Below are positions 6,032-17,043 of a stretch of DNA of 24,000 nucleotides, piece after piece. Below the pieces are notes generated by a model, which was given only the letters and a program-made list of their open reading frames with translations, was not told the DNA's origin and ran no database searches. Where the stretch lies: NCBI GenBank assembly GCA_029233985.1, contig JARGOK010000001.1:409096-433095 (forward strand), in the 5' to 3' direction. Positions within the stretch are counted from its first letter, which is position 1; the number at the start of each line of letters is the position of its first letter. The translations under genes and the position numbers were made by a program. The stretch comes from Candidatus Altimarinota bacterium (lineage in GTDB: Bacteria; Patescibacteriota; Gracilibacteria; JAUYGZ01).

Positions 6032-8458
6032 TCATTTTTCAGCTACCACCATCTTGATCTCCCCATACGAAATCTTCTCCGAAACGGCTTTTTTGATAGG
6101 TGTGAGAGAAGATGTTCCGATTCGTTGAATTGCTGATAAGATTTCAGCTCTCTTTTCTGAACTTACATACTTTGAACTGTCTAATATTTTCCCAGCCCCG
6201 ATTAGCGCAGCGACATGACTTTCAACAGTACTCGTTTGGATATCTCTTTCTTTTGCGATCTCAGTCAGTGACCTTCCTTTAGAGAGCAGCTCGAAGGTCA
6301 CCATGTGAGTATCTCCTTTGCGAACCTTCTTCTTTGTTCGTTTGATTGGAGCTCGTGATGGTGATTGAAACTCTAAACTATTTAGCTCGCAATGAGGTTT
6401 GATGATTTTCAAGAGTTCCTCACTAAACATCTCAATTTTTTTGTCTCCCATTCCACTCATGGTATGTAGCTGGTCTTTTGTTTGAGGAAAACATTCTGAG
6501 ATCTCTCTAAGAGTACGGTCGCCAAAAATCATAAAAGGAGCAATGTCTTTTGACTGAGCCTCTTTATATCGCCATTGTCGGAGCGTATCAAAGAGCTGTT
6601 GGTCGAAGGATTCTGAGGTGTCACTTGCCTTTTCGATAAAGGAAGGCGTTTGTTTTTCTTGGACCATGATCTGTGACTGTTCTTGGAAGACTTTCTTTCC
6701 TTTTTCAGACACCTCGAGCACTGGGTATTCATCTCCGACGCGATCTAGATAGCCAGACCTAACGAGCTGCTTGATGAGTTTCATGACAGCTGACTGTGTG
6801 TAGTCTTTCATAACCCCGTAGCTAGACCAATTGTAACAATTCCACTGCTCAACTTTTTGGGATTTTGATCCCGTGAGGATAGCTGTCGAGATACCAATCC
6901 CAAACTGTCGAGGAAAACTATTAATACCATTTAATATGACATGTGCTGGATTAGTGATATCTGTCTTTGTGGTAGTGCTTTTACCGTCTTCTGATTTTTG
7001 CAAACAACTACTACAGCCGGAGCATTTTATTTCTTGATGACCAAAGTATTCTTGAATCTTATTTCTCTTACATTGCTCGGTTTCTGCATAGCTCAACATG
7101 TCTTGGAGTTTTTTTTCTGCGAGATGCTTCTTCTGTTCCATTTGTTCGACAGATATATGAACCGGTTTTCCAGAATGCTGATAGACCACTGATGAATCTT
7201 GGAAACTCCTATGAATGCCTCCTTTATCTAAAAGAAGCTTCGTTGCGCTGTCCACCTCCATTTTATTTTTAGCAAAGCTCAGAGAATGGAAATGTATTGC
7301 TGCAGGCTGTTTCTTGAGCATCAGAAGAATCTCTTGAAGGAGTTTCGGTGAAGGATTGTTTCCGTCGATAAAAAACTTCTGAAGCATGACATCCTGACTT
7401 CCATAAAAAAGAACACACTCACTTTGTTCTCCATCACGACCTGCTCTTCCTGCTTCTTGAGTATAATTTTCTAGAGAACCCGGCATATCATAATGAACCA
7501 CAAAACGAACATTGGGTTTATTAATTCCCATCCCAAAAGCATTTGTTGCGACAATGACTGAGGTCTCATCTTTCATAAAGCTTTCTTGAGCTTTCATTCT
7601 CACTTTATCGCTGAGACCAGCATGATAGGCAGCAGATGAGATTTTATTTTCCGCGAGCATTTCCTGTACTTTTTCGACATTTTTTCTAGTAGCACAGTAG
7701 ATGATTCCCGAATGATCTTTTTTTGACGCCAAGTACTGTTGAACCCAGGATATTTTTGAATCAGGCTGATAGCAGGCATAGCTGAGGTTGGGTCTATCAA
7801 AGCTCCCGATGAACTGCTGCTGGTCTTTGAAATCAAGCTGTGTGGATATATCTGTCTTCACCTTATCGGTAGCTGTCGCTGTTAGAGCGAGAAACGGAAC
7901 ATGGTGTTGAGACCGCAAATTTTTGATCTTTTTGTAGGAAGGCCTGAAATCGTGCCCCCACTGAGATACACAATGCGCTTCGTCAATCGCAATGAAGTCG
8001 ATTTTTTGTTCATTAGCTAAGGTGTGAAACAAGGACATGAAAGAATGCGTTTCTAATCTCTCAGGCGCCACATAAACTAATCGATACTTTTGAAGGTGAA
8101 TATCCTTCATTCTTTCAGAAATCTCAGCAGAGTCCAAGGAGCTATTAATACATGTTGCCTCAATTCCTAATTCATTCAACTGGTCCACTTGATCCTTCAT
8201 AAGAGAGATAAGGGGAGAAACTACAAAACTGACATTCCCAAGAACAACTGCTGGGATCTGATAACATAGAGACTTCCCTGCCCCGGTGGGCAGAACGACT
8301 AAGGTATCCTTCTTCGCATAGAGAGAAGTTAGGATCTGTTCCTGGAGTGGCCGAAAGCTTTTATATCCAAACACCGTCTGTAGTATTTCCTTGGACTGAT
8401 TCATCTTTTCTTCCATAATTCGTCGATAATCTCGTAAAATACTTCCTAACGAGCCCAT
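6032..8458 (-). CDS. recQ: RecQ-family ATP-dependent DNA helicase with a C-terminal HTH extension
   Basis: 808 aa with Walker A LPTGAGKS and the DEAH box IDEAHCVSQWGHDFR. It has a zinc-finger Cys cluster CKRN...CSGCSSC, an HRDC-like segment, and an extra C-terminal HTH-like segment (GRSLTEIAKERDIQTSTVESHV). The true start may be a downstream Met (MEEKMNQSKE...). Stops on TGA. Confidence 0.9.
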   Translation of the reverse strand: MGSLGSILRDYRRIMEEKMNQSKEILQTVFGYKSFRPLQEQILTSLYAKKDTLVVLPTGAGKSLCYQIPAVVLGNVSFVVSPLISLMKDQVDQLNELGIEATCINSSLDSAEISERMKDIHLQKYRLVYVAPERLETHSFMSLFHTLANEQKIDFIAIDEAHCVSQWGHDFRPSYKKIKNLRSQHHVPFLALTATATDKVKTDISTQLDFKDQQQFIGSFDRPNLSYACYQPDSKISWVQQYLASKKDHSGIIYCATRKNVEKVQEMLAENKISSAAYHAGLSDKVRMKAQESFMKDETSVIVATNAFGMGINKPNVRFVVHYDMPGSLENYTQEAGRAGRDGEQSECVLFYGSQDVMLQKFFIDGNNPSPKLLQEILLMLKKQPAAIHFHSLSFAKNKMEVDSATKLLLDKGGIHRSFQDSSVVYQHSGKPVHISVEQMEQKKHLAEKKLQDMLSYAETEQCKRNKIQEYFGHQEIKCSGCSSCLQKSEDGKSTTTKTDITNPAHVILNGINSFPRQFGIGISTAILTGSKSQKVEQWNCYNWSSYGVMKDYTQSAVMKLIKQLVRSGYLDRVGDEYPVLEVSEKGKKVFQEQSQIMVQEKQTPSFIEKASDTSESFDQQLFDTLRQWRYKEAQSKDIAPFMIFGDRTLREISECFPQTKDQLHTMSGMGDKKIEMFSEELLKIIKPHCELNSLEFQSPSRAPIKRTKKKVRKGDTHMVTFELLSKGRSLTEIAKERDIQTSTVESHVAALIGAGKILDSSKYVSSEKRAEILSAIQRIGTSSLTPIKKAVSEKISYGEIKMVVAEK

Positions 8459-8628
8459 TGTATGTTCAAAATTTCATATAGAGCAAGAGTGATGGATTGA
8501 CAGGCACATCAAAAAGCTGAAAAAAGAACGTCATTCCGAATAATAGCGCTTCAATCCTGTGAATCTCAAGCTTTTTCTGCTAAATATGGCTCTTTCCTGC
8601 TTATATGACAGCTTATTGGCCCACAATT

Positions 8629-8694
8629 CACAGGTGAGAATCGAAATTCTCACCTGTGGCCTACAACCCATCAGAATTTCGACTCTGATCTTCG
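8629..8694. repeat. Family A twin-hairpin intergenic element, copy A1
   Basis: Hairpin 1 has a 13-bp stem (8629-8641 with 8646-8658) and loop CGAA. Hairpin 2 is ATCAGA-ATTTCGAC-TCTGAT (8670-8689), followed by CTTCG. It aligns with 10848-10910 and 16796-16857 in the same orientation. Confidence 0.85.
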
Positions 8695-8896
8695 TTTCAC
8701 ATGTTCTTTGAAAACATCCTGAGATAAACACGATAACAATTGTGTAAAATTTGTTCATTTTTATGTATAAAAAATGTGTCCTTTTACCACTTTAACACTT
8801 TATATAAGCCATTTAATGGCGTTTTTGTTTTTTTAATAACTGTATACATTATTTATAACTATACACCCATTGTGCAAAACGCTCCCGACCTGTTTG

Positions 8897-8925
8897 TTGC
8901 AGATGTAAAATCTGAACGTTATAGT
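8897..8925 (+). promoter_or_regulatory. Sigma70-type promoter for the downstream non-coding unit
   Basis: TTGCAG (8897-8902), exactly 17 nt of spacer, then TATAGT (8920-8925). It is preceded by a very AT-rich tract. Predicted start is near 8932. Confidence 0.55.
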
Positions 8926-8931
8926 ATAACG

Positions 8932-9440
8932 AAGTAAGGGTGAGGAAACGCACATTGAAAACACCGGAGAAGTAAAAGGTAAAAGAAGAACGTTCCCTCG
9001 CTACGGCGGGGCCAATGTTTCGCCTTATCCACAAATAATAAATAAGGACATGTGAACTGAGCTCGTGGGCTCATTCCTACTCCTTTCTCCGCTTGTCGGA
9101 AATATCTGCTCCTGGAGTTGCAGATTGTATCACTCAGTGCCGGCGCGGCACTTGGAATGTCGTTCTTCTTTTACCCTTTGCTTTTCGTATCCAAGTCCTT
9201 CTGACCAAGGTCTTGGGGCAGCCTCCAATACAAGCTCTGACTCGATCAGAGCAGGCTCGCTTCACTCTTCAGTGCTTCGGCAAGGAATTGAGAAGGAGTA
9301 ACGGTCCGGTAAGACATTAACTACCCCGTAAAGGCAAAGAATCGCTGGTCACGAAAACCAAAACAAAAGTCCGTCAAACCAAAATAAAATGGTGTGAATA
9401 GGACGATATTAATTACCCCGAGCTTGCTCGGGGTTTTTTT
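8932..9440 (+). ncRNA. Candidate large structured non-coding RNA (about 0.5 kb), family unknown
   Basis: The unit is bounded by a promoter (8897-8925) and an intrinsic terminator (9416-9440). A perfect 15-bp long-range helix joins 8978-8992 (GGTAAAAGAAGAACG) to 9161-9175 (CGTTCTTCTTTTACC). There are many local hairpins, including a C(UUCG)G tetraloop at 9275-9280. The region is visibly more G+C-rich than its AT-rich flanks. Its only ORFs are short, overlapping and low-complexity. The 5' end is inferred from the promoter only. Confidence 0.6.
9416..9440 (+). terminator. Rho-independent terminator
   Basis: CCCCGAG-cttg-CTCGGGG is a 7-bp GC-rich stem (9416-9433), followed by TTTTTTT (9434-9440). 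Confidence 0.85.
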
Positions 9441-9534
9441 ATGGGTCCCCTCACGACCCCTAACCCCTTACAAGGGGAAAAACATACACCAAAACGCATA
9501 AAACCTAAAACCTCAGTTACATGAGTATTTTTCA

Positions 9535-9563
9535 TTGAAAAAAAGGGCGGCATGCATGAGAAT
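9535..9563 (+). promoter_or_regulatory. Candidate promoter for tRNA-Arg
   Basis: TTGAAA (9535-9540), 17 nt of spacer, then GAGAAT (9558-9563). The -10 ends 8 nt before the mature tRNA 5' end. Confidence 0.4.
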
Positions 9564-9571
9564 TGACTCAC

Positions 9572-9646
9572 GTCCCCATAGTTCAATGGATAGAATAACT
9601 CCCTCCTAAGGAGTAGATGTAGGTTCGACTCCTGCTGGGGACACCA
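9572..9646 (+). tRNA. tRNA-Arg (anticodon CCU)
   Basis: The sequence folds by hand into a cloverleaf. Acceptor stem is GTCCCCA/TGGGGAC and the D stem is GTTC/GAAT. The anticodon stem ACTCC/GGAGT carries loop CTCCTAA, giving anticodon CCT. The T arm is GTAGG-TTCGACT-CCTGC. Discriminator A and the CCA end are encoded. Confidence 0.9.
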
Positions 9647-9703
9647 ATTTACTATTTACTGCTATGAAAATTTCTAAAATCGACTCTTATTGAGGAATTA
9701 CAG

Positions 9704-10165
9704 ATGGATGAAGGAAAAAAATCATATTATTGCTTTTTCGTATACTATTCATGGTTTACTCACGAAGATTTCCGAATACTACACACTTTCATCGCTCAGA
9801 TTTTATGAGAAATCATTAGAAAGATATTTGGAATTTTTACTAATGGAAATGTATGTATAAAGATCTTAAGAATTTTAAATAGACATCTTTCTGAATTTAT
9901 AGAAGACGAGGAGATAAAAATTAAACATGAAAAAATAAGAAAGGAATATGAAAAGTGGACAATTGAATTCACAAAAAACGTAACTTAATTGTCATTCACC
10001 CAGTTGAAGACAGTATTAAAGATAGTGATAAATTTTTTTCCTAATAGGATTATTGAACTATCGGGATGAGGAACTACTGGCTTTGAATTCGTTACCTACA
10101 GCCTCCTTTTCACAGGCAACATAAAACTAATCACATTAATCCTCAAAATGAACTGGATAAGTTAG
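9704..10165 (+). pseudogene. Possible decayed ORF (unknown product) 3' of the tRNA
   Basis: One frame is open from ATG 9704 to TAG 10163-10165, apart from TGA 9806-9808, TAA 9986-9988 and TGA 10067-10069. The pieces look protein-like (...EIIRKIFGIFTNGNVCIKILRILNRHLSEFIEDEEIKIKHEKIRKEYEKWTIEFTKNVT). I recognise no homology. Confidence 0.25.
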
Positions 10166-10234
10166 CAGCCTATATAGATGAAATTGCCGACTGCTACGAT
10201 CAAATCTTTATTGATCATGGCTTCATAAACTCTC

Positions 10235-10750: not shown

Positions 10751-10847
10751 TGTTTTGAACTAATTCCTGGGTATTTTAGCGTTTTTTGAGGTATAATACT
10801 AGCTGAAGCTAATGAAACATTAGAAAGGAACCATCCATTAAAATCTA

Positions 10848-10910
10848 GGTGAAAATTGAAATTCTCACCGATGGAACAACAATCGATCAGAATTTCGATA
10901 CTGACCTACG
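10848..10910. repeat. Family A twin-hairpin intergenic element, copy A2
   Basis: GGTGAAAAT-TGAA-ATTCTCACC (10848-10869), then a 15-nt spacer ending CAATC, then GATCAG-AATTTCGATA-CTGACC (10885-10906), then TACG to 10910. It ends 18 nt before the ybeY ATG. Both stem mismatches are A-C on the plus strand, which is G-U on the minus strand. Confidence 0.85.
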
Positions 10911-10928
10911 TATTACACACTATTTCTC

Positions 10929-16790: not shown

Positions 16791-16795
16791 TCATA

Positions 16796-16857
16796 GGTGA
16801 GAATCGAAATTCCCACCGTTGCCGTGCAACCGATCAGAAATTCGATTCTGATCTACG
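16796..16857. repeat. Family A twin-hairpin intergenic element, copy A3
   Basis: GGTGAGAAT-CGAA-ATTCCCACC (16796-16817), a spacer ending CAACC, GATCAGA-AATTCGAT-TCTGATC (16832-16853), then TACG. It has a single stem mismatch, A-C on the plus strand and G-U on the minus strand. Confidence 0.85.
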
Positions 16858-17043
16858 GAAACATATCATTCATTGAGGCATAGAATACAGAACAATAGAG
16901 TTTATGACATTCACCTTGTTCTGCTTTCTCTTTTGATCGACTAGAACATCTAAATGCTCCTTTTTCACGACATTTTTTCTTCTTTATTTCTCTTGTTAGC
17001 CTTTTTGAATTACACTAAAGGAGCTTATTTGAATTCTCTATAG

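Follow-up and report, generated by a model that had tools for sequence, protein, structure and literature searches.

Large bacterial noncoding RNAs (ncRNAs) built from many conserved helices and longer than about 400 nt are rare, and those with known roles are either ribozymes or the cores of major ribonucleoproteins (RNPs), such as rRNA, RNase P, group I and group II introns, and transfer-messenger RNA (tmRNA). Three unexplained RNAs, OLE, ROOL, and GOLLD, have recently been shown to build unprecedented RNA assemblies. ROOL and GOLLD, whose structures have been determined by cryo-electron microscopy, self-assemble and are encoded near tRNA genes (PMC12286853). Here, we analyze an RNA unit located at positions 8897 to 9441 on the forward strand of a 24-kb window (the whole stretch of DNA under study), next to a gene for tRNA-Arg(CCU). 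An earlier note on this DNA, made from its letters alone, had proposed that these positions hold a stand-alone structured RNA with no assignable family. Our comparisons confirm that observation and support its interpretation: the predicted transcript, at 8932 to 9441, is likely a real stand-alone structured ncRNA of about 510 nt that belongs to a new family.

Homologues of the RNA were found with nhmmer in related metagenome contigs, at E values of 1e-83 to 1e-128. They comprise eight further distinct sequences, from loci L006, L007 to L010 (one sequence), L011, L013, L014, L015, L051, and L139; with the window, they form the alignment of nine sequences used below. Identity ranges from 50 to 79%, most pairs lying between 50 and 60%, and L015 and L139 are close relatives (76%). 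Except for L051, the loci were reached through relatives of the window's def (deformylase) gene that have 67 to 85% identity and the same gene order, and all of them carry the RNA. A more distant def relative (49% identity; L136 to L138) is not syntenic and has no copy of the RNA within the 12 kb examined. When the 3' strand of the long helix P1 (Table 1) was used as a pattern in a metagenome scan, only L051 was a true homologue among the at least 120 matches listed; further homologues may exist in metagenomes. All nine loci share one gene order, in which a divergent pyrE operon (pyrE-pyrC-pyrD-pyrK-pyrF) is followed by the RNA, tRNA-Arg(CCU), and def-ybeY-ftsA-ftsZ. The earlier note had looked to recurrence in relatives and to a conserved place beside tRNA-Arg(CCU) as signs of a genuine RNA, and both are seen, in eight other related genomes and at nine of nine loci, respectively. 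As far as could be sampled, the family appears confined to one lineage of small-genome bacteria labelled Candidatus Gracilibacteria by NCBI; the window's Def protein has an identical counterpart in an NCBI metagenome-assembled genome with this label.

Sequence analysis confirms 8897 to 9441 as a stand-alone, predicted noncoding transcription unit with its own promoter-like site and a strong intrinsic terminator. Both signals had been read in the earlier note, together with a G+C-rich interior, and all three hold. The hexamers TTGCAG and TATAGT are present at the promoter-like site; TATAGT is identical in five of the seven sequences that align over this region, most of which also keep TTG 17 to 18 nt upstream of the -10 element. 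A consensus promoter scan did not list the site because TTGCAG agrees with TTGACA at only three of six positions, below the -35 threshold of the scan. From the position of this promoter, transcription would start near 8931 to 8933. The terminator was recovered by a terminator scan and is found in seven of the nine sequences, where its stem differs in sequence, stays paired, and precedes a U run at the aligned position; L014 and L139 have a shorter 3' tail that ends at a hairpin and U run of its own. G+C content is 0.44 to 0.54 inside the RNA, compared with 0.23 to 0.31 at 8700 to 8899 and 0.20 to 0.34 at 9650 to 9999. Among paired columns, G-U cells outnumber A-C cells (53 versus 26), favoring the forward strand, and this excess, together with the orientation of promoter and terminator, assigns the RNA to that strand. 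Minimum free energy z-scores against shuffled sequences (-4.1 for the forward strand and -5.2 for the reverse strand) indicate structure beyond chance without distinguishing the strands.

No open reading frame (ORF) is conserved among the nine sequences: stop-free stretches vary in frame, strand, and position, the lengths of most alignment gaps are not divisible by three, and the weak mutual similarities of ORFs occur in all frames, as expected of nucleotide conservation. The two internal ORFs of the window that the earlier note had dismissed (9065 to 9301 and 9093 to 9320) are likewise conserved in neither position nor frame. Gracilibacteria are known for reading UGA as glycine. In the window, TGA acts as a stop, with no in-frame TGA in 17 genes and two of these genes ending in TGA; the genetic code of the host is the standard one, not code 25. 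Rereading the RNA region with code 25 yields no gene. In two relatives, gene callers place ORFs over the RNA homologue, one of 176 aa (L007, 11709 to 12239) and one of 61 aa (L011, 11188 to 11373), neither with a Pfam hit; these are very probably false proteins. The window and every other locus have one copy of the RNA each, at a chromosomal site that does not vary, and IMG/VR pattern scans, INPHARED phages, and PLSDB plasmids gave no match to it.

The sequence comparison shows a predicted fold that is maintained by compensatory substitutions. RNAalifold, applied to seven sequences, gave 93 predicted pairs, and compensatory changes are found in 44 of these. For a curated consensus, each homologue was folded segmentwise between invariant anchors, and column pairs were kept if they occurred in at least five of the nine sequences. 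In the resulting 69-pair consensus, 88.9% of cells are paired, compared with 46 to 51% when partners are slid by one to three columns; 31 pairs are changed on both sides (9 to 15 when slid), and the covariation score is 0.366 (0.10 to 0.14 when slid). None of 500 shuffles attains the consensus on any of five measures. At equivalent positions, homologues fold hairpins from differing sequence, the exceptions being P1a in L014 and P9 in L014 and L139. The earlier note had asked for a test of covariation, and compensatory changes are indeed seen among homologues, in the terminator as well as in the long helix and the hairpins. Two domains make up the fold (Table 1). The 5' domain is closed by P1 and holds P1a, P2, P3, and P4; the 3' domain consists of P5, the CAGCCUCC linker, P6, P7, an H-type pseudoknot, P8b, and an A/C-rich tail with P9, followed by the terminator.

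The helices differ in how they are conserved. P1, 21 to 25 bp long, has 21 consensus pairs and is 96% paired over the nine sequences, with three pairs changed on both sides and five showing G-U transitions. The perfect 15-bp long-range helix that the earlier note had seen (8978 to 8992 with 9161 to 9175) is exact in the sequence and lies within 26-nt arms (8967 to 8992 and 9161 to 9186) that are 88% complementary and form the longest inverted repeat of the window. P2 (10 consensus pairs, 91% paired) is almost invariant and thus shows no covariation; in L014, the outer parts of both its strands are deleted together. Compensatory changes occur in P1a (CGC/GCG versus CGA/UCG and CCCC/GGGG versus CUCC/GGAG) and in P9 (for example, AAACC/GGnUUU versus AAAUC/GAUUU). 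P3 is found in all nine sequences, and 10 of its 13 consensus pairs are changed on both sides. P5 folds individually at -11 to -16 kcal/mol in each of the nine. A scan of all column pairs gave no conserved partner for the CAGCCUCC linker. The loop of P7 is UUCG in four sequences and something else in the remainder.

Most hairpins that the earlier note had drawn by eye fit this fold: those at 8995 to 9011, 9058 to 9073, 9104 to 9125, 9191 to 9216, 9234 to 9252, and the UUCG-capped one at 9264 to 9299 have counterparts at matching positions in all homologues, the first being absent from L014 alone. The proposed hairpin at 9023 to 9047 is specific to the window, and the one at 9136 to 9152 occurs in the window and L006 only, its place being taken elsewhere by the 3' strand of P2. 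A pseudoknot or alternative fold suggested for 9077 to 9089, with 8965 to 8971 or 9289 to 9299, is not conserved.

The pseudoknot that the alignment supports lies instead at 9303 to 9325, within the most conserved block of the RNA, AAC-RGUC-C-GGUR-N-GACY-YNAAC-YACC. Its cells are 98.6% paired, compared with 29 to 51% when partners are slid. Stem 2, formed by the hairpin loop and a downstream strand, is paired in all nine sequences, and one of its pairs is A-U in five and G-C in four, without exception. This switch arose more than once, since the two sides of the pair both differ between L015 and L139, which are close relatives. Stem 1 closes with G-C in five sequences and with A-U in three; the window has G-A instead. 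An all-against-all scan of column pairs revealed no tertiary pairing beyond this pseudoknot. The loop of P5 (UGAC) and the loop of P8b (GUCA) have 4 to 5 bp of complementarity at the same place in seven of the nine sequences (6 bp by reading in the window), and this complementarity is no better than that of shuffled loops; P8b may be a kissing partner of the P5 loop, which we offer as a hypothesis only.

Table 1. Predicted elements of the RNA gene and its constant neighbor, in window coordinates
Feature	Position	Strand	Remarks
Promoter-like site, sigma-70-like	8897-8925	+	-35 TTGCAG at 8897-8902, 17-nt spacer, -10 TATAGT at 8920-8925; read from the sequence
Whole predicted transcript, about 510 nt, noncoding	8932-9441	+	nhmmer homologues, no conserved ORF, G-U excess
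P1, 5' strand, purine-rich	8968-8992	+	Pairs with 9161-9185; closes 5' domain of about 190 nt
P1a hairpin	8996-9011	+	UACG tetraloop at 9002-9005; hairpin at this site in 8 of 9 sequences, absent from L014
P2, 5' strand	9012-9027	+	CCAAUGUYUCRCC...; pairs with 9140-9155
P3, long irregular hairpin	9044-9085	+	Apical stem 9058-9073; invariant CGUG loop at 9064-9067
P4 hairpin, variable in sequence and length	9104-9125	+	Hairpin formed in all homologues, from unrelated sequences
P2, 3' strand	9140-9155	+	CGGNGCGGCACYUUGG; in the window, local hairpin 9136-9152 is an alternative
P1, 3' strand	9161-9185	+	CUUCUUUYMCCYYUUGCUUUU, nearly invariant in the 9-sequence alignment
P5 hairpin	9190-9217	+	Conserved UGAC in loop; 6 of 6 consensus pairs changed on both sides
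Linker CAGCCUCC (YAGCCUCC), predicted unpaired	9219-9226	+	7 of 8 positions invariant in 9 sequences; first base U in L139
P6 hairpin	9234-9252	+	4 of 6 consensus pairs changed on both sides; in 9 of 9 sequences
P7, long irregular hairpin	9255-9299	+	UUCG tetraloop at 9276-9279 in the window; 7 of 9 consensus pairs changed on both sides; in 9 of 9 sequences
H-type pseudoknot	9303-9325	+	Stem 1 9303-9306/9313-9316 (RGUC/GACY); stem 2 9308-9311/9322-9325 (GGUR/YACC)
P8b, small hairpin	9346-9360	+	GUCA in loop; (C)UCGUCA or UGGUCA loop in most homologues
P9 hairpin, within A/C-rich 3' tail	9369-9404	+	In 7 of 9 sequences; absent from L014 and L139
Intrinsic terminator	9415-9441	+	Stem 9415-9434, 8 pairs (6 G-C), then U7 (T7 in DNA); terminator scan
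tRNA-Arg(CCU), constant neighbor, outside the RNA	9572-9646	+	ARAGORN and Rfam

Searches of the known families agree with the earlier note, which could name none. At gathering thresholds, Rfam 15 contains no family for the RNA, and a scan of 8450 to 9700 at E values up to 10 gave weak chance matches far below threshold, none of them on the RNA core. At the same cutoff, slices of 520 to 570 nt from three divergent homologues (the window, L015, and L011) gave weak, nonrecurrent chance matches, mostly at the terminator end. One of these, to the PyrR binding site, scored 27.7 bits (gathering threshold, 54) at the terminator end of L011 and in that homologue only; a pyrimidine leader is further ruled out because transcription of the RNA leads away from the pyr operon and the neighboring phosphoribosyltransferase is PyrE rather than PyrR. 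The only RNA known to Rfam or ARAGORN nearby is tRNA-Arg(CCU). Our full-text literature searches found no such RNA described in Gracilibacteria or Patescibacteria.

In the window, the RNA and its tRNA are flanked on the left by a RecQ-type helicase gene (6032 to 8458, reverse strand), with the pyr genes further left, and on the right by the genes for peptide deformylase, ybeY, ftsA, and ftsZ. The helicase has 808 aa and DEAD, Helicase_C, RQC, HRDC, and HTH_40 domains. Its gene is an insertion that separates the RNA from pyrE in this genome only; relatives have the RNA directly beside pyrE. A contig scan for relatives by way of RecQ yielded only an unrelated Roizmanbacteria locus. The nearest RecQ homologues are 59% identical, not syntenic, and located in unrelated contexts, which suggests that recQ was acquired horizontally. 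Between tRNA-Arg and def lies a gene-free spacer of about 590 bp (9647 to 10234; 20 to 37% G+C), where in L014 and L015 the tRNA abuts def. It contains, 55 nt downstream of the tRNA at 9680 to 9696, a degenerate copy of the tRNA 3' end (TCGACTCTTATTGAGGA, 76% identical), possibly a remnant left by an element that had integrated at this tRNA. The window also has three copies of an intergenic element of about 70 nt, all in one orientation (8628 to 8701, 10847 to 10917, and 16791 to 16864; 79 to 86% identical). One copy lies upstream of recQ, another separates def from ybeY, and one lies between a gene for a DinG-like DnaQ-exonuclease/helicase and one for a penicillin-binding protein. Each copy has a 14-nt near-palindrome, AGAATCGAAATTCT, and its inverted form, AGAATTTCGAYTCT, about 25 nt later. 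It could be the operator pair of a damage-response regulon, an idea prompted by the DNA-repair genes that neighbor two of the three copies, or an element similar to repetitive extragenic palindromic sequences; it was not found in the loci of the relatives examined.

The RNA has its own promoter-like site and terminator, no conserved ORF, and a conserved, covarying structure, the features that mark stand-alone structured ncRNA genes in general. Several points weigh against reading it as a new family with the fold described. The nine sequences belong to one clade and are related to each other, which keeps the covariation statistics modest. P2 and most of P1 are nearly invariant, and covariation therefore says little about them. 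P6 and P7 reach only 76% pairing in the alignment made with MAFFT, a method that takes no account of structure. In the window and L006 only, the local hairpins GGCGGGGC/GUUUCGCC and GUGCCG/CGGCAC (9005 to 9024 and 9136 to 9152) compete with P1a and P2, and the minimum-energy folds of these two sequences prefer them; they could represent an alternative conformer or mere drift of a sublineage. The -35 hexamer is weak, and both transcript ends are placed from consensus elements. No candidate partner gene is linked to the RNA, its neighbors being pyrE, tRNA-Arg, and def. Finally, diverged housekeeping RNAs of the Candidate Phyla Radiation (CPR) can be missed by standard models (PMC8172020).

As to function, we tentatively propose a scaffold or assembly mechanism, which is possible though far from assured. 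The RNA would act in trans as a folded particle, neither by long antisense pairing nor as a leader. Its functional site would consist of the invariant, mostly unpaired elements, namely CAGCCUCC, the pseudoknot and its conserved flanks (GAUAAC...UUAACYACC...GAAAAGC), the CGUG and UGAC loops, and the P1 and P2 strands, while the variable hairpins P4, P6, P7, and P9 would serve as struts. Through this site, the RNA would recruit a protein partner or engage in RNA-RNA contacts, so that it would work as an RNP scaffold or as a self-assembling "ornate" RNA of the OLE, ROOL, and GOLLD kind. More speculatively, the RNA might found a new class of large ornate RNAs, perhaps a tRNA-associated RNA-only machine or assembly, on a par with the nanocages of ROOL and GOLLD or with a new ribozyme, which ultra-small CPR bacteria would retain in the chromosome because it replaces a protein function absent from their reduced genomes; we regard this as rather unlikely.

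An alternative is that the RNA regulates mRNAs by base pairing in trans: the exposed, invariant CAGCCUCCAAG, with its anti-Shine-Dalgarno-like CCUCC, would pair with GGAGG ribosome-binding sites of target messages, and the remainder of the molecule would provide stability. The CAGCCUCC linker, invariant in eight of the nine sequences and lacking a conserved intramolecular partner, fits such a role; several Gram-positive small RNAs (sRNAs) use C-rich seed regions, and the A/C-rich single-stranded tail could recruit a chaperone. Yet a molecule of 510 nt with a pseudoknot and no fewer than 11 conserved helices goes far beyond what a seed-pairing sRNA needs, many other loop and junction positions are equally invariant, and generic pairing to Shine-Dalgarno sequences would be unspecific. 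Within the 24-kb window, neither the linker nor the pseudoknot flank has a complementary target except the RNA's own gene. We consider a base-pairing regulator improbable.

The constant neighborhood raises the question of a tie in cis to tRNA-Arg(CCU), for example, as a long structured leader or cotranscript that aids tRNA expression or processing. The tRNA gene lies roughly 10 to 130 nt from the 3' end of the RNA at all nine loci, despite insertions on both outer sides of the pair (recQ in the window and, in L006 and L013, genes for an acetyltransferase and an SLH protein); in L014, it begins about 10 nt past the RNA end, and tRNA proximity is also a property of ROOL and GOLLD (PMC12286853). 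However, a terminator stands between the RNA and the tRNA at every locus, and in the window, the tRNA has a separate promoter-like site at 9535 to 9563. Moreover, the tRNA is on the strand of the RNA in six loci only; cotranscription is impossible in L015, L051, and L139 because the tRNA is on the opposite strand there. The adjacency itself may merely reflect a short spacer in a generally syntenic region. A functional tie in cis seems quite improbable. At the three exceptional loci, the tRNA is inverted in place (L015, 6529 to 6603; L051, 9828 to 9902; L139, 1777 to 1851) and converges on the RNA gene, with a common terminator region.

A further possibility is an extremely diverged housekeeping RNA (RNase P RNA, tmRNA, signal recognition particle [SRP] RNA, or 6S RNA) that standard models fail to recognize. 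CPR bacteria carry RNase P RNAs that escape standard models and default Rfam thresholds; thresholds below the noise cutoff were needed in 10 of 35 complete genomes, together with extensive manual refolding (PMC8172020). The size class of our RNA, its independent gene with promoter and terminator, its long-range helices and pseudoknot, and its place beside a tRNA gene would suit RNase P RNA, and none of the four housekeeping RNAs is found elsewhere in the 24-kb window. Nevertheless, RNase P models match none of the slices of the window, L015, and L011 even at E values up to 10. The two strands of the RNase P P4 helix, CR-I (GAGGAAAGUCC) and CR-V (ACAGAA..GGCUUA), are absent from the invariant columns of the alignment, and the 5' and 3' ends show no conserved pairing of the RNase P P1 type, the long helix closing only the first 220 nt or so. 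A GGUCCGG block that recalls RNase P P4 or SRP helix 8 is explained by the covarying local hairpin and the pseudoknot.

The other three families fare no better. As in tmRNA, an A-rich single-stranded stretch comes after a compact H-type pseudoknot, but the RNA has neither a tRNA-like acceptor/T-arm domain nor a conserved tag frame, and indels past the pseudoknot have lengths not divisible by three; Rfam is negative, and ARAGORN finds no tmRNA in the window or in 11 loci covering all nine homologues. No SRP RNA model matches at E values up to 10, and no GNAR-capped helix 8 motif is present, the GGUCCGGUAAGAC block forming instead a 4-bp hairpin whose 6-nt loop is engaged in the pseudoknot. There is no match to 6S RNA either, and the multidomain branched fold of about 510 nt contrasts with the 6S rod of 180 to 200 nt and its large central bubble. 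The earlier note had set aside these four families for want of their signatures, and the searches point the same way; we hold a diverged housekeeping RNA to be very improbable.

That the locus is no RNA gene at all is scarcely credible. It would instead be a decayed coding gene, a gene for a small protein, or a miniature mobile element with the 15- to 26-bp inverted repeat at its ends, and the called ORFs of L007 and L011 and the long repeat arms would speak for this. Against it stand ORFs that agree in neither frame, strand, nor position, the barren code 25 reading, arms that evolve by compensatory change as RNA helices do, and a single copy per locus at a constant site; the earlier note had expected many copies of the 15-bp inverted repeat from a miniature inverted-repeat transposable element.

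The likely ncRNA keeps a constant place in genomes that have lost much else and measure only about 1 Mb, and it is probably important to this uncultured lineage. In practical terms, gene callers currently annotate what appear to be spurious proteins over it in relatives, and the alignment and pseudoknot provide a starting point for a covariance model, structure determination, and searches for partners.

Among RNAs of comparable complexity, the models for ROOL, GOLLD, OLE, HEARO, and raiA gave no match at gathering thresholds or at E values up to 10. Like the RNA of the window, ROOL and GOLLD are large (about 0.5 to 0.8 kb), ornate RNAs with multiple helices and pseudoknots, made from stand-alone genes and lacking a known protein partner or function, and they share with it adjacency to tRNA, although here to one tRNA only. 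They differ in their setting: whereas ROOL and GOLLD belong to phages and prophages, those of Firmicutes among them, and often lie in tRNA islands, the RNA of the window occupies a fixed chromosomal housekeeping site, with conserved pyr, def, ybeY, and ftsAZ synteny, and is absent from the phage collections scanned.

OLE RNA (about 610 nt, with the partners OapA, OapB, and OapC, from extremophilic and anaerobic Firmicutes) resembles it in being a large, structured, and highly conserved nonribosomal RNA that is chromosomal and restricted to a lineage. The two architectures are unrelated, and no oapA-like gene is linked to the RNA of the window. OLE is thought to act as an RNP scaffold, and a role of the same kind is only proposed for the RNA described here. 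By analogy, while the model searches exclude membership in their families, OLE, ROOL, and GOLLD would be its closest analogues.

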